NCBI GenBank assembly: GCA_964452565.1
Contig: CAYVLY010000001.1
Coordinates: forward strand, 451,053-515,052
Length of the DNA: 64,000 nt
Origin: an uncultured Gammaproteobacteria bacterium
Lineage (GTDB): Bacteria; Patescibacteriota; Patescibacteriia; UBA9934
Direction: 5' to 3'
A program made the translations under genes and the position numbers. Below the pieces are notes generated by a model, which did not search any database, was not told where the DNA came from, and saw nothing but the letters and a program-made list of their open reading frames with translations. Positions 5,348 through 62,882 of the stretch are shown here, piece by piece (position 1 is the first letter of the stretch; every line of letters begins with the position of its first letter).

Positions 5348-5536
5348 TTATTTAGTCACTTCTTGCAAGCGAGTTAGAATGCGTGCAATATTTGCTCGAA
5401 CTTCACGAACCTCGCGAACATCCTTGAGTTGGTTTACAGAAATCTTTGTTCGCAATTCATAAAGACTTGCACGCTCTTCTGCCAAAAGCTTTTGCAGTTC
5501 TTTTTCTGTCTTTTTTTCTAGATCCTTGAATTCCAT
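5348..5536 (-). CDS. rpmC: 50S ribosomal protein L29
   Basis: 62 aa helical protein (ELQKLLAEERASLYELRTKISVNQLKDVREVREVRANIARILT) between rplP and rpsQ. Confidence 0.85.
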   Translation of the reverse strand: MEFKDLEKKTEKELQKLLAEERASLYELRTKISVNQLKDVREVREVRANIARILTRLQEVTK

Positions 5537-5537
5537 A

Positions 5538-5951
5538 CTATTTTCGCGTTACAACTTTGGTTTTCATTGGAAGCTTGTGTGCTGCAAGACGCAATGCCTC
5601 ACGTGCAATATCTTCTTCAACACCATCCATTTCAAACATGACTGTTCCAGCTCGCACAGGTGTCATGTAGTAATCTACTCCCCCCTTTCCTTTTCCCATC
5701 GGAGCTTCAGATCCATGAGATGTTATTGGGTGGTCAGGAAAAATTCTAATCCAGATCTTACCACCACGTTTGACGTAACGAGTCATCGCACGACGCGCAG
5801 CCTCAATCTGACGAGATGTCACCCATGACTCTGTCATTGCCTTCAAGCCATACGCACCAAACGCAACATTAGTCTTTTGCGTTGCAACACGATCACCTTT
5901 TGTGCGTCGCTTGTGCCACTTTCGAAATTTCATCTTTTTTGGAACCAACAT
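5538..5951 (-). CDS. rplP: 50S ribosomal protein L16
   Basis: MLVPKKMKFRKWHKRRTKG...GAYGLKAM...RQIEAARRAMTRYVKRGGKIWIRIFPDHPIT matches L16. Confidence 0.92.
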   Translation of the reverse strand: MLVPKKMKFRKWHKRRTKGDRVATQKTNVAFGAYGLKAMTESWVTSRQIEAARRAMTRYVKRGGKIWIRIFPDHPITSHGSEAPMGKGKGGVDYYMTPVRAGTVMFEMDGVEEDIAREALRLAAHKLPMKTKVVTRK

Positions 5952-29291: not shown

Positions 29292-31148
29292 TTACTGAAC
29301 ATTGACCCTGTGGGGTCGCGGTCCGGATCCAGAGGAGAACTTGGAGCCTCCTGGATCCTGCGGCGTTGCTGTGATTCGGTAGTCGATGCCGTTGGAGAAC
29401 GTATCATCCCACGATATCGTAGCCTGGTAGGCGCCACCACGCGTGGCAAGCGGTTTGGACTTGTATGCACCCGAGTTTGTCGGACGATAGTAGACCACCA
29501 CCTTGTAGCTGCCTTCTGGGTGCACGCGCGCCTTGACCATGAAATCCTGGCCGATAGTGAGCGAACTCACTGGCACGTGCTGGATCCCAGGCTCGATGGT
29601 TGGCTCAGGCTCAGGTGCGGCGACCATAGCCTCAGGTTCAGGTTCGACCGTCACCTCGGGCTCGATCAGCACTTCTGGCTCAGGGATCTCAATGACTGGC
29701 TCAGGCTCAGGGGCCTTGGCAACCGAATCAGGTTCGATCGGATCGGGCACCGGAACGACTTCAGGCTCAGGCTCGATCACCACTTCAGGTTCGATCTGTA
29801 CCAATGCTTCGAGCTCGACAACCTTGGCTGCCTCAGGGCTGGGACCATGGGTTTCGATCTGTACCTCAGGCTCGGGCTCGGGAACTACGATCGGTTCTGG
29901 GTCCGACATGCCGGCCAGTTCGACCACAGGCTCCGATGCAGTAGCCTCTGGCGTCGCATCACCATCACCGAAGAGGACCATCCCCGCAACACAGAGCAAG
30001 ACCACTAGCCCAATGATTGCCACTGGGATGGGCCACCTGCTCCTGCGAGGTGTCGGTACATCGTCAGACAGACTATCGCCGGGCAGAACCGTGTGACCAC
30101 CTGGATCAAACGTTGTGCCAGCACTTCGGAGACCATCCAGATCTTGATCACCACTGACTGCATGCCCGTAACGTTCCTCAGGAACTTCGAGCTCCTCAGG
30201 AACCATTGTGCCGCCAGGCGGGACGACGCTCTGTGGCTCAGCCTCTACGGCCTCAGGCACACTAGCAAGCGCTTCATCAGGCTCGGACTCTGGTTCGACC
30301 ACCACCTCAGGTTCGGGCGGATCGTCAGGAAGCTCGTCGTAGATCGCACGAAGCGCATCGATCATCTCTTGCGCGCTCTGAAAGCGATCTTTGCGATTGT
30401 ACTTCGTTGCTTGCTCGATAAGCCCACGGAACACCTCAGGCACACTATTGAGCATATCAAGATCAAGCTCGCACGATTGAAGGTCTGGAGGAACTTCTAC
30501 CCCAACCAGCATGCAGTACAGCGTTGCGCCAACAGCGAAGATGTCAGAACGCAGATCTACGGAAGATCCATCACTCTTCTGCTCTGGCGACATGAAGCCA
30601 AACGTTCCCATCGGGGTACCGATCTTGGTAAGGCCTGTATCTTCGAGCTCCATCTGAACGATGCCGAAGTCAGTGACCTTCACCGCACCATCCTCAGTGA
30701 AAAGGATGTTCGCGGGCTTAATGTCACGGTGTACCATACCACGACCATGTGCGAGAGACAGTGCTCTGAGAACTGCAATACACACGCTAGCAGACCACTT
30801 CTGGCCTAGCGAACCGCGTTGATGAATCCTGTTAAGCAACGAGCCACCGGTGATGAATTCCATAACAATGAACTGCTTATCGCCACCATCACCATTACCG
30901 AATACGTCGTAGACAGATACGATGTGGTGGTGCCTAAGCCTTGCCATCGCCTTAGCTTCACGTACAAATCGCTCGCGAATCATCGGCCTATGAGACAGAT
31001 TGGGCAGCAACATCTTGATAGCAACTTCTGCATCCAGAGCGGTATTAGTCGCCCTGTACACCACTGCCATACCCCCCTCACCAATGATGGAGCCCAACTC
31101 ATACTTACCATCCGCAAGGAAGCGGTCTGGCGTTTTTTTCGAAGTCAT
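29292..31148 (-). CDS. Hanks-type Ser/Thr protein kinase with one transmembrane helix, a Pro/Glu-rich (PEPE repeat) extracytoplasmic linker and a roughly 90-aa C-terminal domain
   Basis: Kinase subdomains are present: GEGGMAVVYRA, VAIK, HRDIKPANIL, DFG and SPEQ. The transmembrane helix is WPIPVAIIGLVVLLCVAGMVLFG. The gene is about 62% GC, and AAGGAG sits 6 nt before the ATG. Confidence 0.85.
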   Translation of the reverse strand: MTSKKTPDRFLADGKYELGSIIGEGGMAVVYRATNTALDAEVAIKMLLPNLSHRPMIRERFVREAKAMARLRHHHIVSVYDVFGNGDGGDKQFIVMEFITGGSLLNRIHQRGSLGQKWSASVCIAVLRALSLAHGRGMVHRDIKPANILFTEDGAVKVTDFGIVQMELEDTGLTKIGTPMGTFGFMSPEQKSDGSSVDLRSDIFAVGATLYCMLVGVEVPPDLQSCELDLDMLNSVPEVFRGLIEQATKYNRKDRFQSAQEMIDALRAIYDELPDDPPEPEVVVEPESEPDEALASVPEAVEAEPQSVVPPGGTMVPEELEVPEERYGHAVSGDQDLDGLRSAGTTFDPGGHTVLPGDSLSDDVPTPRRSRWPIPVAIIGLVVLLCVAGMVLFGDGDATPEATASEPVVELAGMSDPEPIVVPEPEPEVQIETHGPSPEAAKVVELEALVQIEPEVVIEPEPEVVPVPDPIEPDSVAKAPEPEPVIEIPEPEVLIEPEVTVEPEPEAMVAAPEPEPTIEPGIQHVPVSSLTIGQDFMVKARVHPEGSYKVVVYYRPTNSGAYKSKPLATRGGAYQATISWDDTFSNGIDYRITATPQDPGGSKFSSGSGPRPHRVNVQ

Positions 31149-32509: not shown

Positions 32510-32620
32510 GAGGAGGGTGATAGAGGTTATTAAGGGTAATAAGAGGTGATAGAGGTTATTAAAGGTGATGAAAGACAATAATCACTTTTTATCACCTTTT
32601 CAACCTTTAATCACTTTTGT
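32510..32620. repeat. Cluster of GGTGAT and ATCAC(C) hexamers arranged as inverted arrays, including an 18-nt direct repeat ggtgatagaggttattaa present twice, lying upstream of gdhA
   Basis: GGTGAT occurs at 32516, 32545 and 32564. ATCAC occurs at 32581, 32591 and 32610. aaaggtgat and atcaccttt are reverse complements. Confidence 0.5.
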
Positions 32621-35069: not shown

Positions 35070-35160
35070 CCTTGGTGCTTTCGCCTGACACCTCTTTCCC
35101 CGCCTCCAAACGGAAGTGGGGAATCTTGCTTTATGAACCCAAGGTTGAACCTTAAAGCCA

Positions 35161-35230: not shown

Positions 35231-37258
35231 TCACTTGGCTCCTTCAATATCGAGCGTTCGAGCCTTTTCTTCCTCACGATAAATCTCTAGGATATCTCCC
35301 TCTTCAATCTTTGCCTTTCCAGCAAACTCAATTCCACACTCATTACCTCGCTCAACTTCCTTCACATCCATCTTACCCATCTGTAACCCCTTAATCTTCC
35401 CCTCAGCAATCACTTCCTCATCTCGTACAACACGAGCGGTTGCACCAACTTCTACAACACCCTTTTTGACATGCCCTCCAACAATCATTCCCTTTTGCAG
35501 TTTCTGGAATGTTGCGCGAATGTCCACTGCTCCAAGCTCAGTATAAACCTGCTCTGCAGGAATAAGAATCCGAAGCTTCTCAACCAAATCTTCAAACAAC
35601 TTATAGATCACAGTGTACTGGCTCAACTTTACCCTCTTATCACGCGCCAGCGTCTCAACTGCAGTAGGTGGCTTTACATTAAAAGCGAACACCCATGCCT
35701 TTGTTGCCTCAGCGTTCAAGATATCTGCGTCAGTCACATTCCCAAGCCCCTTAGATATGACCTTTACTCCCACATGTGGGTTGTCGATCTTCTCAATCAT
35801 TCCAAGTACGGCCTCAAGTGAACCAAGGACATCTGCTCGTATAACAATATTTAGCATCACCTTCTTATCTCCATCACTCTCGTCGTCTGAATCTACTTCA
35901 GCCTGTGAGGTATGTACCTTCATCTCATCAGCCCCAGCCTTTCGTGTTGGTTGTGCCTTAAGTTTTTGAAGTGACTTTGGATCCTCTGGGACCTCCATTA
36001 CATCTCCGATTGACGGTGCTGCCTTAAACCCGAGAATTCGCACAGGAGTAGACGGCTTTGCCTCCTTGATACTGTGGCCGTCCCATGTTTGCATGGCACG
36101 CACCTTTCCGTAACCAGTACCACGTACGCCAAGTGAATCTCCCAAATTCAATGTTCCAGACTGAACAAGAACTGTGGCCACTGGCCCACGTGTCTTATCA
36201 ACTTTTGATTCAATAATTGTTCCAATGGCACTTCTATCAGCATCGGCTACAATCTTTTCCTTATGCATGTCAGCCACAAGAATCAGCATGTCCAAAATCT
36301 GATCAATATTTTTTCCTTGCTTTGCAGAGATTGGAACCATGACTGTATCTCCGCCATAATCTTCAGGAATCAATCCAAACTCTGAAAGTTGACTCTTCAC
36401 CATGTCGATATTTGCATTCTCTTTATCAATCTTGTTGATTGCTACAATAAATGGCATCTTTGATGCTTTGACAATATCAATTACTTCACGAGTCTGGGGT
36501 TGCACTCCATCATCTGCTGCCACAACAATAATCGCGATGTCAGCAACCTTTGCTCCACGCGATCGCATCACTGTAAAAGCTTCGTGTCCCGGAGTGTCAA
36601 TAAATGTGAGTTCACGATCCTGTCGAGTGACCTGGTAAGCACCAATGTGCTGTGTGATTCCTCCGTGTTCAGTGTCAATAACGTTTGTATCTCGAATCGC
36701 ATCAAGCAACTTTGTTTTACCATGATCAACATGGCCCATCACGACAATAACTGGTGGTCGCTCCTCTGCACCATCTTGATCCGCAAGTACTCCCTCAAGC
36801 TTCTCTAGGCCCTCCTCATCTGCCGCCTTTGCCTCAGTATCCTCTGGCTCTGCAATAAATCCAAGATCAGCTGCAATGATTGCAGCGCTGTCAAAATCAA
36901 TTCGTTCGTTTAGTGATGCCAAGATTCCAGCGCGCATCAACTCTTGCATAACCTTTGCAATCGGCATCTCAAGCTTGTCTGCAAAATCACGTACAGTTAT
37001 TGCACTTGGCAGATAGATCTTCTGAGCTGTCCCCTCTACCACTTTTTGCTTGCGCTCTGCACGTGCTCGCTGCTCATCACGCTTTTTTGCCAAAAACTGA
37101 CGCTTTCTATACTGACGCCATGCATATTGGATTCGTCCAGCCTCGCGGTCTGGTATCTTGATCGCCTTTGCTCCAATATCAAAACCGAGCTCGGGTAATT
37201 TGTCTCTAAGCTCGTCAGTCGAAACACGCAATCTTCGGGCTAATTCTGAAATATTCAT
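35231..37258 (-). CDS. infB: translation initiation factor IF-2 (short form)
   Basis: 675 aa: [33 protein letters not shown], and the beta-barrel domains. Confidence 0.95.
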
Positions 37259-38613: not shown

Positions 38614-39372
38614 ATGTTACGATTTCATTATATGCCGAAATCAGGATTTCTTCTAATCAATAAACCACAAGGCTGGACAAGCTTTGATGTTGTTGCAAAA
38701 CTGCGCACGATCACGAACATAAAAAAGATTGGTCATGCTGGAACACTTGATCCGTTTGCGACTGGGCTTTTGATAATAGCAATAGGCCGTGAAGCAACAC
38801 GAGAAATAGACAAACTCATGGGATTGGATAAAGAATACCTCGCAGAGTTTGTTCTTGGTGCCACAACTGAGAGTCTTGATACTGAGACTGAGGTAAAGAT
38901 CGATGATGACATGCCAGAACTTTCACAAGACCAGATCCTGGCCACCATGCAAGAACTGACCGGCGAAATCGATCAGATTCCGCCAATGCACTCAGCAATC
39001 AAAGTTGGCGGGAAACGACTCTATAAAATAGCACGCAAAGGTGAGGAGGTTGAGCGCAAGCCTCGTAAGGTTAGGATCGAACACTTCGAACTTACCTCCC
39101 CTCCTTACGAAGGAGGGGCAGGGGGAGGTCGCACACCGCTAATCCTCGAGGTTCGCATTAAGTGTTCAAGCGGCACGTACATTCGAGCCCTGGCCCGCGA
39201 CCTTGCTGAAAAACTAGGAACTACTGGATACACGCGCGCTCTTTGTCGTACAAAGATCGGAAACTTCAACGTATCTGACGCAATTGAAATCGATCAGATC
39301 GATGACCAAACTTGGCAAAACTTCGTAAAAAACCTTGAAATCGATGCAATTGACGAAAGTGCCCGATCGTGA
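38614..39372 (+). CDS. truB: tRNA pseudouridine(55) synthase TruB carrying a 12-aa in-frame insertion (SPPYEGGAGGGR) encoded by a hairpin repeat
   Basis: GHAGTLDPFATGLL is the catalytic Asp motif, together with MHSAIKVGGKRLYK and CSSGTYIRALARDL. Confidence 0.9.
   Translation: MLRFHYMPKSGFLLINKPQGWTSFDVVAKLRTITNIKKIGHAGTLDPFATGLLIIAIGREATREIDKLMGLDKEYLAEFVLGATTESLDTETEVKIDDDMPELSQDQILATMQELTGEIDQIPPMHSAIKVGGKRLYKIARKGEEVERKPRKVRIEHFELTSPPYEGGAGGGRTPLILEVRIKCSSGTYIRALARDLAEKLGTTGYTRALCRTKIGNFNVSDAIEIDQIDDQTWQNFVKNLEIDAIDESARS
39095..39130 (+). repeat. C-rich/G-rich hairpin repeat cctcccctccttacgaaggaggggcagggggaggtc inserted in-frame inside truB
   Basis: The palindrome CCCCTCCTT-acgaa-GGAGGGG is followed by GGGGAGGTC. 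Related copies lie at 41107-41141 and 41169-41204. Confidence 0.65.
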
Positions 39373-39563
39373 TAGTCTGAGTCTGTAAAAATTAACTGAG
39401 TTTGGAAGAATTTCAGGCATACCGGCAGTATCTATGACTTCATTTTGTACATCTAGCACAAAAATCTTTAATAAAGATTTTGAGCTAACCATCGTGAACA
39501 ATCGAAGAATAGAATCACAGGAATAATTCCTGCCTGTTTTCGTTTCCAACTCCTAAACACTCT

Positions 39564-41099
39564 ATGCTAACACAAGAAGTTGTGATTGCTGCAGGGTTGG
39601 GAGTCTTTTTACTTGGAATTTTGATCGGTTACTTCCTTCGAAAAACCATAATGAAAGGCAAGGCGAAGTCTGTAGAGGCTCGCGCTGAAAAAATCCTACA
39701 CAAAGCAAAGTCACAAGAAAAAGAAATTCTTCTTCAAGCAAAGGAAAAGGCTATCAAGGCTCTTGAGGAAGGTAAGAAAGAAGCTGAGGCACGAAGACGC
39801 GAACTTCAATCTCAGCAATCACGTCTAGAAAATCGCGAAAACAAATTTGACCAACAGCTACTTGCACTTGAGGATCGAAAATCCAAGCTTGATGCTCAAC
39901 GCAAAGAAGTGGACCAAGTAAAAGCAAAGATTGATGAGATCAAGCATGAGCAGCTTGATAAACTTCAGAAGATTGCCGGTCTTACTCACGAGCAAGCTCG
40001 TGAAGAACTTTTGAATGCTATTGAGCAGGCAGAAAAAGAGACCCTACTCAATCGAATGCACAAGCTTGAGCAGGTTAGTGAAGAAGAAGTTGAGAAACGC
40101 GCAAAGTCAATTATCTCTTTGGCGGTGCAACGCTTTGCTGCAAGTCATGTTTCTGATGCAACAACAACAATGGTTGAACTTCCATCAGATGAAATGAAAG
40201 GACGCATCATTGGTAAGGAAGGTCGAAACATTAAAACTTTGGAGCGACTTACAGGTTGCGAGTTGATCATCGACGATACACCGGAGATGATTATGATTAG
40301 TGGATTCTCCCCTGTCCGACGTCAGGTTGCGAACCGTGCTCTTAAAGCACTTATTAAAGATGGTCGCATTCAACCAGCACGCATTGAAGACGCAGTGACT
40401 GAGGCCAAGAAGGGTCTTGCCAAGGAGATGAAAAAGGCTGGAGAAGATGCACTATACGAACTTGGGATCCCAGTTTCATCTATTGATCCAAAGTTGATTT
40501 CAATCTTGGGTCGACTCAGGTTCAGAACAAGTTATGGTCAGAATGTACTGCAGCACTCAATTGAGGTTGCCCGCATCTCTGGAATGCTTGCTGAAGAGCT
40601 TGGTGCAAATGTATTTGACTGTAAGAAGGGTGGTCTGTTCCATGACATTGGAAAGGCAGTTGATCACGACATGCAAGGTGCACACCCAGAGATCGGATAC
40701 AACATCATGAAAAAGTTTGGATTCCCTGAGGAGCTTTGTTACCAGTCAATCGCCCATCATGAGGACAAACCAAAAACTATCGAAGGTGTAATCGTCAAAG
40801 CAGCTGATGCTATTAGCGGAGCACGTCCTGGTGCACGTCGCAACACGCTCGAAGAGTACATTCAGCGACTCCAGAATCTTGAACAAACTGCTAGTGAATT
40901 TGAAGGAGTTGAAAAGGCTTATGCGATCCAAGCTGGACGAGAGGTTCGTGTATTTGTACAGCCTAATGAGGTTGATGAATACACTTCTGAGAACCTTGCT
41001 CGTGAGATTGCAAAGAAGATTGAATCAGAACTCACGTATCCTGGAGAAGTGCGCGTGACCGTGATTAGAGAGACGCGTGCAACCGAGTACGCTCGATAA
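39564..41099 (+). CDS. rny: ribonuclease Y
   Basis: 511 aa with an N-terminal transmembrane helix, a coiled coil, a KH domain (GKEGRNIKTLERLTG) and an HD domain (LFHDIGKAVDH...HHED). Confidence 0.9.
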   Translation: MLTQEVVIAAGLGVFLLGILIGYFLRKTIMKGKAKSVEARAEKILHKAKSQEKEILLQAKEKAIKALEEGKKEAEARRRELQSQQSRLENRENKFDQQLLALEDRKSKLDAQRKEVDQVKAKIDEIKHEQLDKLQKIAGLTHEQAREELLNAIEQAEKETLLNRMHKLEQVSEEEVEKRAKSIISLAVQRFAASHVSDATTTMVELPSDEMKGRIIGKEGRNIKTLERLTGCELIIDDTPEMIMISGFSPVRRQVANRALKALIKDGRIQPARIEDAVTEAKKGLAKEMKKAGEDALYELGIPVSSIDPKLISILGRLRFRTSYGQNVLQHSIEVARISGMLAEELGANVFDCKKGGLFHDIGKAVDHDMQGAHPEIGYNIMKKFGFPEELCYQSIAHHEDKPKTIEGVIVKAADAISGARPGARRNTLEEYIQRLQNLEQTASEFEGVEKAYAIQAGREVRVFVQPNEVDEYTSENLAREIAKKIESELTYPGEVRVTVIRETRATEYAR

Positions 41100-41106
41100 A
41101 CTAGAT

Positions 41107-41141
41107 TCCCCCTCCTTCGAAAGGAGGGGTTAGGGGAGGTC
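41107..41141. repeat. Hairpin repeat copy ccccctccttcgaaaggaggggttaggggaggtc
   Basis: CCCCTCCTT-cgaaa-GGAGGGG, then GGGGAGGTC; intergenic between rny and hup. Confidence 0.6.
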
Positions 41142-41168
41142 CATTAGCTCTAATTAATTCGATCAAAA

Positions 41169-41204
41169 CCCCCTCCATCTCCCCCTTCGAAAGGGGGAGG
41201 GGCA
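41169..41204. repeat. Hairpin repeat variant ccccctccatctcccccttcgaaagggggaggggc
   Basis: CCCCCTTCGAAAGGGGG is a palindrome, with flanking CCCTCC and GGAGGGG. Confidence 0.55.
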
Positions 41205-41273
41205 AAACGGGCCTTGAACAAAATCGCCAATCTTGGTATTATATCTATTGAAAACTAGTAATAAAGATCATTT

Positions 41274-41672
41274 ATGAATAAAGCTACACTTGCTCTCAAG
41301 ATTTCAGAACGATTGAATATTCCAAAAAAGGATGCAGAAGACTTCATTGCGATGTTTCAAGAAGTTGTAATTGATGCTCTAAGGCGTGACGAGGAAGTAA
41401 CAATCGCAGGTTTTGGAACATTCTCATCTCGTGTTCGACATGCTCGCAAAGGCGTGAACCCACGAAAGCCAAATGAAATGATTGATGTACCTGCAGTAAA
41501 AGTTCCAAAGTTCAAAGCTGGAAAGCGACTCAAGGATGATTTGAAGGCAAGTATGGCAAGTTCAGCTCCTTCGGAAGAGCCAGAGCCAAAGCCAGAACCA
41601 GCTGCACCTGCACCAGAAACACCAGCTGAAGAGACTCCGGCACCAACGCCAGAAACACCAGCGGCTGAGTAA
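41274..41672 (+). CDS. hup: DNA-binding protein HU/IHF family with a Pro/Ala/Glu-rich C-terminal tail
   Basis: TIAGFGTFSSRVRHARKGVNPRKP..VPAVKVPKFKAGKRLKD is the HU beta-arm. The tail is EPEPKPEPAAPAPETPAEETPAPTPETPAAE. Confidence 0.85.
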   Translation: MNKATLALKISERLNIPKKDAEDFIAMFQEVVIDALRRDEEVTIAGFGTFSSRVRHARKGVNPRKPNEMIDVPAVKVPKFKAGKRLKDDLKASMASSAPSEEPEPKPEPAAPAPETPAEETPAPTPETPAAE

Positions 41673-47350: not shown

Positions 47351-47427
47351 TGGTACACCGGGTGGGACTCGAACCCACGACCCACTGATTAAGAGTCAGT
47401 TGCTCTAACCAACTGAGCTACCGGTGC
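47351..47427 (-). tRNA. tRNA-Lys (anticodon CTT)
   Basis: Manual fold: acceptor GCACCGG/CCGGTGT, D-stem GCTC/GAGC, anticodon stem ACTGA/TCAGT with loop CTCTTAA, T-arm GTGGG-TTCGAGT-CCCAC, discriminator A, and an encoded CCA. Confidence 0.85.
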
Positions 47428-47428
47428 C

Positions 47429-47505
47429 TGGCGCGGCGTGAGGGATTCGAACCCCCGACCTACTGGTCCGAAGCCAGTCGCTCTATCCAGCTGAGCTAAC
47501 GCCGC
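47429..47505 (-). tRNA. tRNA-Arg (anticodon TCG)
   Basis: Manual fold: acceptor GCGGCGT/ACGCCGC, D-stem GCTC/GAGC, anticodon stem ACTGG/CCAGT with loop CTTCGGA, T-arm GGGGG-TTCGAAT-CCCTC, and an encoded CCA. It is separated from tRNA-Lys by 1 nt. Confidence 0.85.
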
Positions 47506-56052: not shown

Positions 56053-56124
56053 CCCCTGCGTAGGCAGGGGTCCATCGTTATATCTAGTTCAATAGTCGAT
56101 GGATCCCGGCTCTACGGCCGGGAT
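56053..56124. repeat. Two GC-rich perfect hairpins (CCCCTGC gtag GCAGGGG at 56053-56070; ATCCCGGC tctacg GCCGGGAT at 56103-56124) between the divergent HAD and rpsA promoters
   Basis: Read directly; they lie upstream of the rpsA promoter. Confidence 0.5.
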
Positions 56125-58001: not shown

Positions 58002-58178
58002 GACGACAATCAGTCCCCTTTGGCCGTATCTGGCCTGTTCGACACCCACGACTGGGGTGTCGATTTCTTTTACTATTGACATGGTGCCTATTCCCTGCTA
58101 AGTTCCATGGCTTTCAAAGATGCGGTATGATTTGAACAAAGGTTCAATTCAGACCCCACCTTTCGAAAGGAGTGTCCC

Positions 58179-62501: not shown

Positions 62502-62703
62502 TGGACATAAAAAAGAAGCGCAAACGCGCTTCTTTTCTCATCTTAGCCACACTGCGAGCACGTTCATGCTTATCCCCGGGCAGGAGAACGGAATAGCATT
62601 TTGCGTGACATTTATCCATATAAACAAATGGAGCTCAAAATGCCCGTTTGTATGTCAGGGGTAATGCATGGACAGCGCAGCACTGTGGCTAGCAGTTTCT
62701 TTT

Positions 62704-62788
62704 CCCCATTTCTTTGCTGCTTCAAAGAAATGGGGCCCTGGGCCTGCCTGCCGGCAGGCAGGGGTTTGGGGGACGGAGTCGCCCCCAA
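62704..62788. repeat. Three consecutive GC-rich hairpins: a 13-bp perfect stem CCCCATTTCTTTG/CAAAGAAATGGGG, a 20-bp perfect palindrome CCTGCCTGCCGGCAGGCAGG, and TTGGGGGAC ggag TCGCCCCCAA
   Basis: Read directly. The cluster is intergenic and lies upstream of the -10 box (TATAAT at 62848-62853) of the next gene. Confidence 0.55.
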
Positions 62789-62882
62789 GGAGTTATCGAG
62801 ATTCAAAAGATCCCTCGACTTTGCTCGGGATGGGTTAGTGCTACATTTTTTGCTATAATAACAACGATATTAACAAGGAGGT

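Follow-up and report, generated by a model that had tools for sequence, protein, structure and literature searches.

Three copies of a predicted BoxC/PIT-type intrastrand triplex motif, one of them in frame within truB, in a Patescibacteria genome segment

A short repeat with a C-rich and a G-rich arm occurs three times in the 64,000-nt stretch of DNA analysed here (contig CAYVLY010000001.1, positions 451,053 to 515,052; hereafter the window, with positions counted from its first letter), once inside truB, the gene for tRNA pseudouridine-55 synthase, and twice between rny and hup. We consider this repeat to be, with good probability, a class II purine-motif intrastrand triplex element of the kind described in Escherichia coli as BoxC, potential intrastrand triplex (PIT) or TMECO, one that behaves as a selfish, mobile or unstable repeat. 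This reading takes in the apparent replacement of a truB loop by one copy, the pair of copies between rny and hup, and a putative link, drawn from other genomes, to genes for DUF559 nucleases. Its central feature is a third arm. The unit is 33 nt long (9+3+9+3+9) and consists of a pyrimidine (Y) arm, a loop, a purine (R) arm, a 3-nt loop and a further, reverse-Hoogsteen arm (RH), which in all three copies is the mirror image, and not the complement, of the R arm. Because of this third, mirror arm the element is classed as an intrastrand triplex motif and as more than a hairpin. An earlier sequence-only reading had proposed a small dispersed palindromic element, which is borne out, but it missed the third arm (the trailing GGGGAGGTC) and took the unit to be exactly 36 nt.

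The three strong copies which that reading placed at 39095-39130, 41107-41141 and 41169-41204 are all present. Copy 1 of the triplex motif (TM), at 39098-39130 on the plus strand, lies in frame inside truB, with its Y arm CCCCTCCTT at 39098-39106, a loop ACG, its R arm AAGGAGGGG at 39110-39118, a loop CAG, and its RH arm GGGGAGGTC at 39122-39130; it allows eight perfect triads and one terminal mismatch, and encodes the peptide PPYEGGAGGG(R). Copy 2, at 41109-41141 on the plus strand, begins 10 nt past the rny stop codon, reads CCCCTCCTT-CGA-AAGGAGGGG-TTA-GGGGAGGTC, and likewise gives eight triads and one mismatch. Copy 3, at 41167-41199, had been taken for a variant; it has the identical architecture on the minus strand, with a second stem type (CTCCCCCTT-TCG-AAGGGGGAG-ATG-GAGGGGGTT) and all nine triads, its Y, R and RH arms being the reverse complements of 41191-41199, 41179-41187 and 41167-41175, respectively. 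The stem differs from that of the other two copies and the mirror relation between R and RH is kept. Copies 2 and 3 form an inverted pair with their RH arms pointing inward.

We scanned the window with a triplex-motif finder built on the published ITxF rules, which ask for at least eight triads of the types G·G:C and A/T·A:T, allow one mismatch at most, and limit loops to 1-6 nt. It returned exactly three copies, compared with a mean of 0.03 in 30 shuffles, and no additional one in the window when up to two mismatches were allowed. An independent scan for hairpins with one all-pyrimidine and one all-purine arm found only these three sites in the 64 kb. The 21-nt hairpin core CCCCTCCTTCGAAAGGAGGGG matches only at the 39095-39130 and 41107-41141 sites, with a chance expectation of 0, and GGAGGGGNNNGGGGAGGTC has exactly two matches in the window. 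Both loops are 3 nt in the window copies, and all three copies lie within the ITxF limits (stems of 6-15 nt, of which at least 8 are needed to exceed chance; at most one mismatched triad; loops of 1-6 nt; G/C above 50%). The hairpins, modelled alone with ViennaRNA, are stable in all copies (9 bp, -9 to -11 kcal/mol). As a separate candidate, we considered the third arm as half of an alternative Watson-Crick hairpin; copy 2 offers no partner for it and copy 1 only an overlapping register, and the mirror rule was adopted in its place.

BoxC was first noted in E. coli in the 1990s, was rediscovered as the potential intrastrand triplex by Hoyne, Maher and colleagues (Hoyne et al., 2000; Hoyne and Maher, 2002), and was surveyed as TM/TMECO by Holder et al., 2015 (PMC4666352). 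The TMECO pattern places a 9-nt C stem before two 9-nt G stems, with a loop of 3-6 nt after the C stem and one of 3 nt between the G stems (Holder et al., 2015, PMC4666352), with the consensus CCCTCNCCC-N3-6-GGGNGAGGG-N3-GGGNGAGGG; E. coli K-12 carries 23 copies, all of them intergenic, including five inverted pairs, each made up of two sequence types. TMECO DNA forms a stable triplex in vitro by circular dichroism (CD) and nuclear magnetic resonance (NMR) (Holder et al., 2015, PMC4666352). In E. coli, PIT elements act neither as promoters nor as terminators, and local genomic instability has been linked to them. The window motif shares with TMECO/BoxC/PIT the order of a 9-nt Y arm, a loop of 3-6 nt, a 9-nt R arm, a 3-nt loop and a 9-nt mirror RH arm, and resembles TMECO further in being dispersed and multicopy, in forming inverted pairs whose members differ in sequence type and turn their RH arms inward, and in varying between close relatives. 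It differs in sequence, its stems being CCCCTCCTT or CTCCCCCTT and not CCCTCNCCC, so that the TMECO consensus does not describe it and it belongs to another sequence family of the same kind. It also differs in its Patescibacteria host, in the spread of its stem family across more than 20 phyla and viral contigs, and in having one copy within a coding sequence, that of truB, where TMECO is described as always intergenic.

If the window copies fold as their layout predicts, the Y and R arms would pair into a 9-bp hairpin in single-stranded DNA, such as replication, transcription or repair would supply, and the RH arm, a mirror of R in which A is replaced by A or T, would fold back antiparallel into the major groove of the hairpin, generating G·G:C, A·A:T and T·A:T triads. 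A cross-bacterial scan, taking one genome per species and selecting by the Y and R arms only, gave at least 120 stretches. Among the matches listed, motif-bearing stretches came from more than 20 phyla, including Bacteroidota, Nitrospirota, Acidobacteriota, Pseudomonadota (Thiomargarita among them), Cyanobacteria, Chlamydiota and many Patescibacteria; the earlier reading missed that the family is pan-bacterial and not local. In the same set, GGGGnGGnn lies within 24 nt to one side of 119 of 152 hairpins, against about 1% per side in the control, and opposite the three A's in the R arm stands a T or an A in 117, 117 and 103 of the 119. Counted over the whole family, third arms that follow reverse-Hoogsteen pairing number in the hundreds, across over 20 phyla. 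With other stems the third arm co-varies as a mirror: AAGGGGAG is accompanied by GTGGGGT, GGAGAGGG by GGGTGAGG and AAAGGGGG by GGGGGATT. Between R and RH the loop takes one of two forms, about 3 nt or a GC hairpin of 12-22 nt, and either way the two arms stay adjacent. Since a mirror repeat would be meaningless to an RNA hairpin or to a protein dimer that binds duplex DNA, a folded DNA structure seems the economical reading of the mirror arm. A search of Rfam at the gathering threshold, over the window and ten motif-rich loci, returned no family for the motif and only tRNAs and a group II intron; literature searches by motif sequence strings turned up nothing relevant. We note in addition that a Thiomargarita contig (L112, 7128-7292) carries a head-to-tail array of 41-nt triplex-motif units.

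The copy in truB (38614-39372, plus strand; Pfam TruB_N, E = 1e-48, with 160 aa aligned to the 149-position profile; the true start is probably the ATG at 38632) falls into loop residues 161-175 (SPPYEGGAGGGRTPL), which the AlphaFold2 model of the window TruB places between strands 151-160 and 176-184 (mean pLDDT, the model's per-residue confidence, 87.9; loop blocks about 82-85). By this model the motif-encoded segment sits in a beta-hairpin loop. The window clusters with L127, L128 and L129 (89-91% identity in IF2, RNase Y and a neighbouring protein), whose truB genes are free of the motif and keep the ancestral loop INDIRKKDGQ; where these closest relatives read FEL-INDIRKKDGQ-LIIEV, the window reads FEL-TSPPYEGGAGGGRTP-LILEV. 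In the codon alignment about 36 nt, including the 33-nt motif, stand in for about 21 nt, the loop thereby gaining 15 nt net, or 5 aa over the nearest relatives. The ortholog alignment thus agrees with the earlier expectation of a lineage-specific segment, and it supports the truB copy as an apparent lineage-specific gain. That the copy sits in frame inside truB also holds; a clean 12-aa insertion between contiguous strands does not, as E. coli TruB (1K8W) already has the loop FIRHEGNE there, the window loop being 8 aa longer than it and 7 residues longer than that of Mycobacterium tuberculosis TruB (1SGV).

We propose that the 33-nt copy replaced about 21 nt at the tip of this beta-hairpin. 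With 3-nt loops the unit amounts to 11 codons, and its arms, of C and T only, of A and G only, and of G, A and T without stop triplets, leave all six frames open, so that in-frame survivors would be easily obtained; this, together with the position of the loop at the hairpin tip, might be why the truB copy is tolerated. Such an element can, it appears, enter the gene of an essential tRNA-modification enzyme without breaking it. A second clade also has the motif at truB, with a decayed single copy at the same codon in L001 and, in L003, an inverted pair beside a retained ancestral loop. The stem type of copy 3 is also found in L003, where it lies upstream of truB, and in a decayed state within the truB gene of L005. 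Among other Patescibacteria TruB proteins, P0006 and P0009 have the motif at the same loop as the window, and P0069 and P0012 have motif-derived peptides in a different one.

Copies 2 and 3 are contained in an insertion of about 110 nt (41100-41212) between the stop codon of rny (39564-41099, plus strand) and the promoter of hup (41274-41672, plus strand). MAFFT alignment of the spacers showed it to be absent from all six related loci, in which the rny stop runs nearly straight into the conserved hup promoter region; the promoter-like site of hup, TTGAAC-17 nt-TATTAT at 41214-41242 on the plus strand, is conserved in the relatives and lies directly 3' of the insertion. Compared with a miniature inverted-repeat transposable element (MITE), which would be non-autonomous and have terminal inverted repeats, a target-site duplication and an autonomous relative, the insertion has motif ends in inverted orientation and no open reading frame (ORF), with ORF-bearing counterparts in other loci, and shows no target-site duplication; we picture it as an ORF-less inverted pair that would have been inserted as such between the two genes. 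Conversely, L129 has two motifs around gdh which the window is without. The presence/absence differences in both directions indicate that the elements turn over between genomes about 90% identical in conserved proteins. Around the same gene, one of the L129 motifs (5405-5600) has its first loop expanded by a hairpin of about 45 nt and stands beside a second motif; the window gdh-trxB spacer has neither, and at 32516-32574 contains degenerate direct repeats (GGTGATAGAGGTTATTAA-like; Tandem Repeats Finder period 10, six copies).

The truB case seems to be one instance of a general behaviour which the E. coli literature does not report. In the fetched loci, 30 of 195 motif occurrences sit well inside long open frames, and all ten motif-bearing frames tested with Pfam are real genes: RarA/MgsA, Lgt, a beta-CASP RNase, TsaE, CysS, PanE, an MmeI-type enzyme, a type ISP enzyme, a hybrid two-component sensor and a type IX secretion system (T9SS) protein. 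The intragenic motifs occur in several frames and both orientations, with peptides such as PPxxGGxGGG, PLLxKEGxGEV and TSPxPSLxRRG. Short Pro/Gly-rich or PLLxKEGxGEV-type inserts in metagenome proteins may be repeat DNA and not protein features, a point of some consequence for annotation. In the cyanobacterial MmeI-type restriction-modification gene (L114, 281-3724, minus strand) a whole motif-DUF559-motif unit lies in frame within the methyltransferase domain, and an insertion of the same kind is found in a Bacteroidota type ISP gene (L088, 979-2130, minus strand). The former gene has at least five in-frame triplex motifs.

No mobility functions have ever been found near TMECO according to Holder et al., 2015 (PMC4666352), whereas motifs of this kind flank DUF559 genes in the genomes compared here. 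A DUF559 ORF (PF04480) stands between motifs in eight loci that had been selected by the motif. In the reverse test, on 80 metagenome loci chosen by DUF559 protein similarity alone, a motif lies within 200 nt upstream of DUF559 in 59 of 79, within 200 nt downstream in 57 of 79, and on both sides in 46, over a background of 0.095 motifs per kb. The upstream motif is in the plus orientation in 48 of 59 cases and the downstream one in the minus orientation in 47 of 57, such that the third arms face the gene. The gaps between motif and ORF have medians of about 47 nt upstream and about 18 nt downstream, the stem type is the same at both ends of an element, and 39 of 40 DUF559 ORFs are intact. Whole motif-DUF559-motif elements measure 420-540 bp, with one of 663 bp; they are found in L131-L210 (for example L142 1891-2406 and L182 1925-2408), and at L015 4666-5179, L114 1780-2307 and L130 11207-11761. 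In E. coli, a TMECO lies 170 nt from the 3' end of the DUF559 gene ycjD. The BoxC/TMECO neighbouring ycjD is adjoined by a duplicated fragment of the gene's own 3' end. A Patescibacteria contig (L073) opens with a DUF559 C-terminus followed by a motif. In viral contigs (IMG/VR, L211-L290) the third arm accompanies 93 of 107 hairpins, with up to six motif copies per stretch, and one of them (L216, 1141-1791) has a DUF559 gene between two motifs, which suggests viral contigs as a vehicle for motif spread across lineages. Literature searches on DUF559, ycjD and boxC found no paper linking the nuclease to the repeats.

On these grounds we infer that the motifs might be the terminal inverted repeats of an element of about 0.45-0.5 kb encoding a Vsr-like PD-(D/E)XK nuclease of the DUF559 family, and that solo copies and empty pairs could be its non-autonomous derivatives, standing to it as repetitive extragenic palindromic (REP) sequences and REPINs stand to RAYT. 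The wider proposal, that BoxC/PIT-type motifs are the ends of pan-bacterial, partly phage-borne selfish elements of about 0.5 kb with DUF559 (YcjD in E. coli), whose solo ends and empty pairs land in frame even in essential genes, is a tentative one, to which we give slightly less than an even chance. BoxC/PIT elements have so far been without a known function, origin or means of spread; if the proposal is true, it explains what BoxC elements are and how they spread, a question since the 1990s, and it describes a system analogous to REPIN/RAYT with another nuclease fold and with ends that would fold into triple helices. The comparison across the family in any case yields a candidate mobilising enzyme that can be tested, DUF559, which is YcjD in E. 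coli K-12. For the window itself, what is new is an element of the BoxC/PIT kind apparently active in a minimal Patescibacteria genome.

Several observations weigh against parts of the reading of the window motif as a mobile triplex element. Regarding the fold, the structure of the window copies is predicted and a physical triplex has been shown for TMECO alone; no TMECO triplex was detected in E. coli in vivo by dimethyl sulphate (DMS) footprinting, and RNA reportedly does not adopt purine-motif triplexes. Regarding mobility, neither the window insertion nor 32 DUF559 elements show a clear target-site duplication or defined ends; only an extension of the inverted repeat by 2-4 nt (ACT...AGT, or AGCT) is seen at the ends of the insertion and of DUF559 elements. 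A DUF559 profile, run over the window and every Patescibacteria locus in six-frame translation, found no such gene in the 64 kb or in the near-relative loci, the only match being the fragment in L073. The 80 DUF559 loci are those most similar to the motif-associated queries, and the association may hold for one subfamily only; DUF559 identity is just weakly higher within a stem type (57% vs 52%), and motif pairs occur in both relative orientations. Lastly, the truB copies of the window and of L001 have the same codon position and the same length despite belonging to different clades, which is hard to explain by independent insertion; recombination, site preference or selection are possible causes.

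The alternative that retains most weight, one we hold to be rather unlikely, is that DUF559 genes are homing-type nuclease genes that entered pre-existing motif pairs; the motifs would then be their targets and not ends, and would have spread by other means, for instance slippage during replication, gene conversion or some further enzyme. Within the PD-(D/E)XK superfamily, DUF559 is placed alongside Vsr and a homing endonuclease, and the Vsr/DUF559 clade includes the homing endonuclease of a group I intron. Insertion sequences are known to target REP sequences. The absence of DUF559 from the window would also suit such a history, as would the empty pairs of the window and of E. coli, which have the same inward orientation as the DUF559 elements and contain no ORF. 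This alternative sits poorly, however, with the tight spacing between motif and ORF, with the matching stem types at the two ends, and with the whole motif-DUF559-motif units in frame inside restriction-modification genes, which fit one unit moving together.

We regard as improbable the further alternative that the copies are RNA-level elements with local functions, such as a 3' stabiliser or terminator hairpin of rny or a site of translational pausing in truB, in which case the third arm would be incidental. The location of copy 2 on the sense strand just past rny, and the stability of all the hairpins, would favour it. Against it, no T-tract follows copy 2 on the plus strand, where it would yield the U-tract of an intrinsic terminator; the inactivity of PIT elements as promoter or terminator in E. 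coli, the occurrence of copies in either orientation and, within ORFs, in several reading frames, the third-arm rule, which has no meaning for an RNA hairpin, and the fact that the nearest relatives manage without the element all speak the same way. Still less credible is that the G-rich half (GGAGGGG-N3-GGGGAGG) forms a G-quadruplex and no part of a triplex: it does have four G-runs, and Holder et al., 2015 (PMC4666352) raised the quadruplex as a competing fold, but the 18 imino signals in their NMR spectra of TMECO fit a triplex and not a quadruplex, and a quadruplex leaves unexplained both the complementary C arm and the T/A rule opposite the A's. That the Gly-rich loop of TruB is an adaptation of the protein, with its nucleotide likeness to the intergenic copies secondary, we find hardly tenable, for although the segment is kept in frame and a similar one stands at the same place in L001 and L003, its DNA equals copy 2 at all 17 triad-forming stem positions and has the three-arm layout, the motif encodes unrelated peptides in other frames and orientations of other genes, and the closest relatives are without the segment.

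The mobile triplex motif preferred here invites comparison with other repeat systems. Like the REP/REPIN-RAYT system (Nunvar, 2010; Bertels and Rainey, 2011, PMC3116915), it involves short palindromic repeats found as singlets and inverted doublets, genomes in which non-coding copies are many and nuclease genes one or a few, and a nuclease gene flanked by inverted repeats. Unlike REP/REPIN, the window copies have no GTAG or CGTC tag and do have a third mirror arm, and the associated protein is a Vsr-like PD-(D/E)XK protein of the DUF559 family, with a putative role in mobilisation, where RAYT is an HUH Y1 transposase. Rickettsia palindromic elements (RPE) are said to be selfish palindromes that sit in frame in protein genes and add tolerated surface peptides; the families RPE-1 to RPE-8 reportedly measure 100-150 bp and are restricted to Rickettsia. 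The likeness is that of palindromic DNA in frame in coding genes, and the window motif differs in its 33-nt unit, its unrelated sequence and its triplex layout. The small dispersed repeats (SDR) of Nostocaceae, reportedly 21-27 nt long and apparently mobile, are also said to occur within genes and to appear by replacing sequence; we know of no triplex layout or nuclease association for them. We liken SDR to the window motif by description and not by sequence, and they are reported from Nostocaceae only.

The sequence-only reading had listed weaker members of the family, most of which do not hold up. The site at 58153-58178 (plus strand), called a degenerate copy, is four edits away from the 21-nt core, lacks the third arm, and is no more stably folded than its shuffles (z = 0.08); it is no demonstrable copy, and we do not count it as a family member. 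The suggestion that a copy there supplies a Shine-Dalgarno motif is unsupported. The looser relatives proposed at 35095-35120 and 56053-56070 are ordinary hairpins. The one proposed near 62764-62788 fares in part better: a perfect 9-nt mirror repeat does lie by a palindrome, but the triad rule fails with three mismatches. The possible diverged TM-like element there (62741-62777, plus strand) has the palindrome CCTGCCTGCC/GGCAGGCAGG followed by the mirror repeat AGGCAGGGG-TTTG-GGGGACGGA, and three triad mismatches are at chance level (0.45 per shuffle). It belongs to an intergenic GC-rich hairpin cluster at 62703-62790 with a 13-bp hairpin, a perfect 20-nt palindrome and that same mirror repeat, and the cluster may be a diverged element of the triplex type.

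As for the surroundings, the host segment is that of a Candidatus Uhrbacteria-like member of the Patescibacteria, and its TruB has its best named relatives in metagenome-assembled genomes of Uhrbacteria and Patescibacteria. infB is found at 35231-37258 on the minus strand. Between leuS and gdh, the segment 27984-31148 has a GC content of 0.51-0.57, compared with about 0.45, and holds a Ser/Thr protein kinase gene (29292-31148, minus strand) and two orphan ORFs; its counterpart in L129 has just two small ORFs, and the segment may have been acquired. Two neighbouring tRNA genes lie on the minus strand at 47354-47505.

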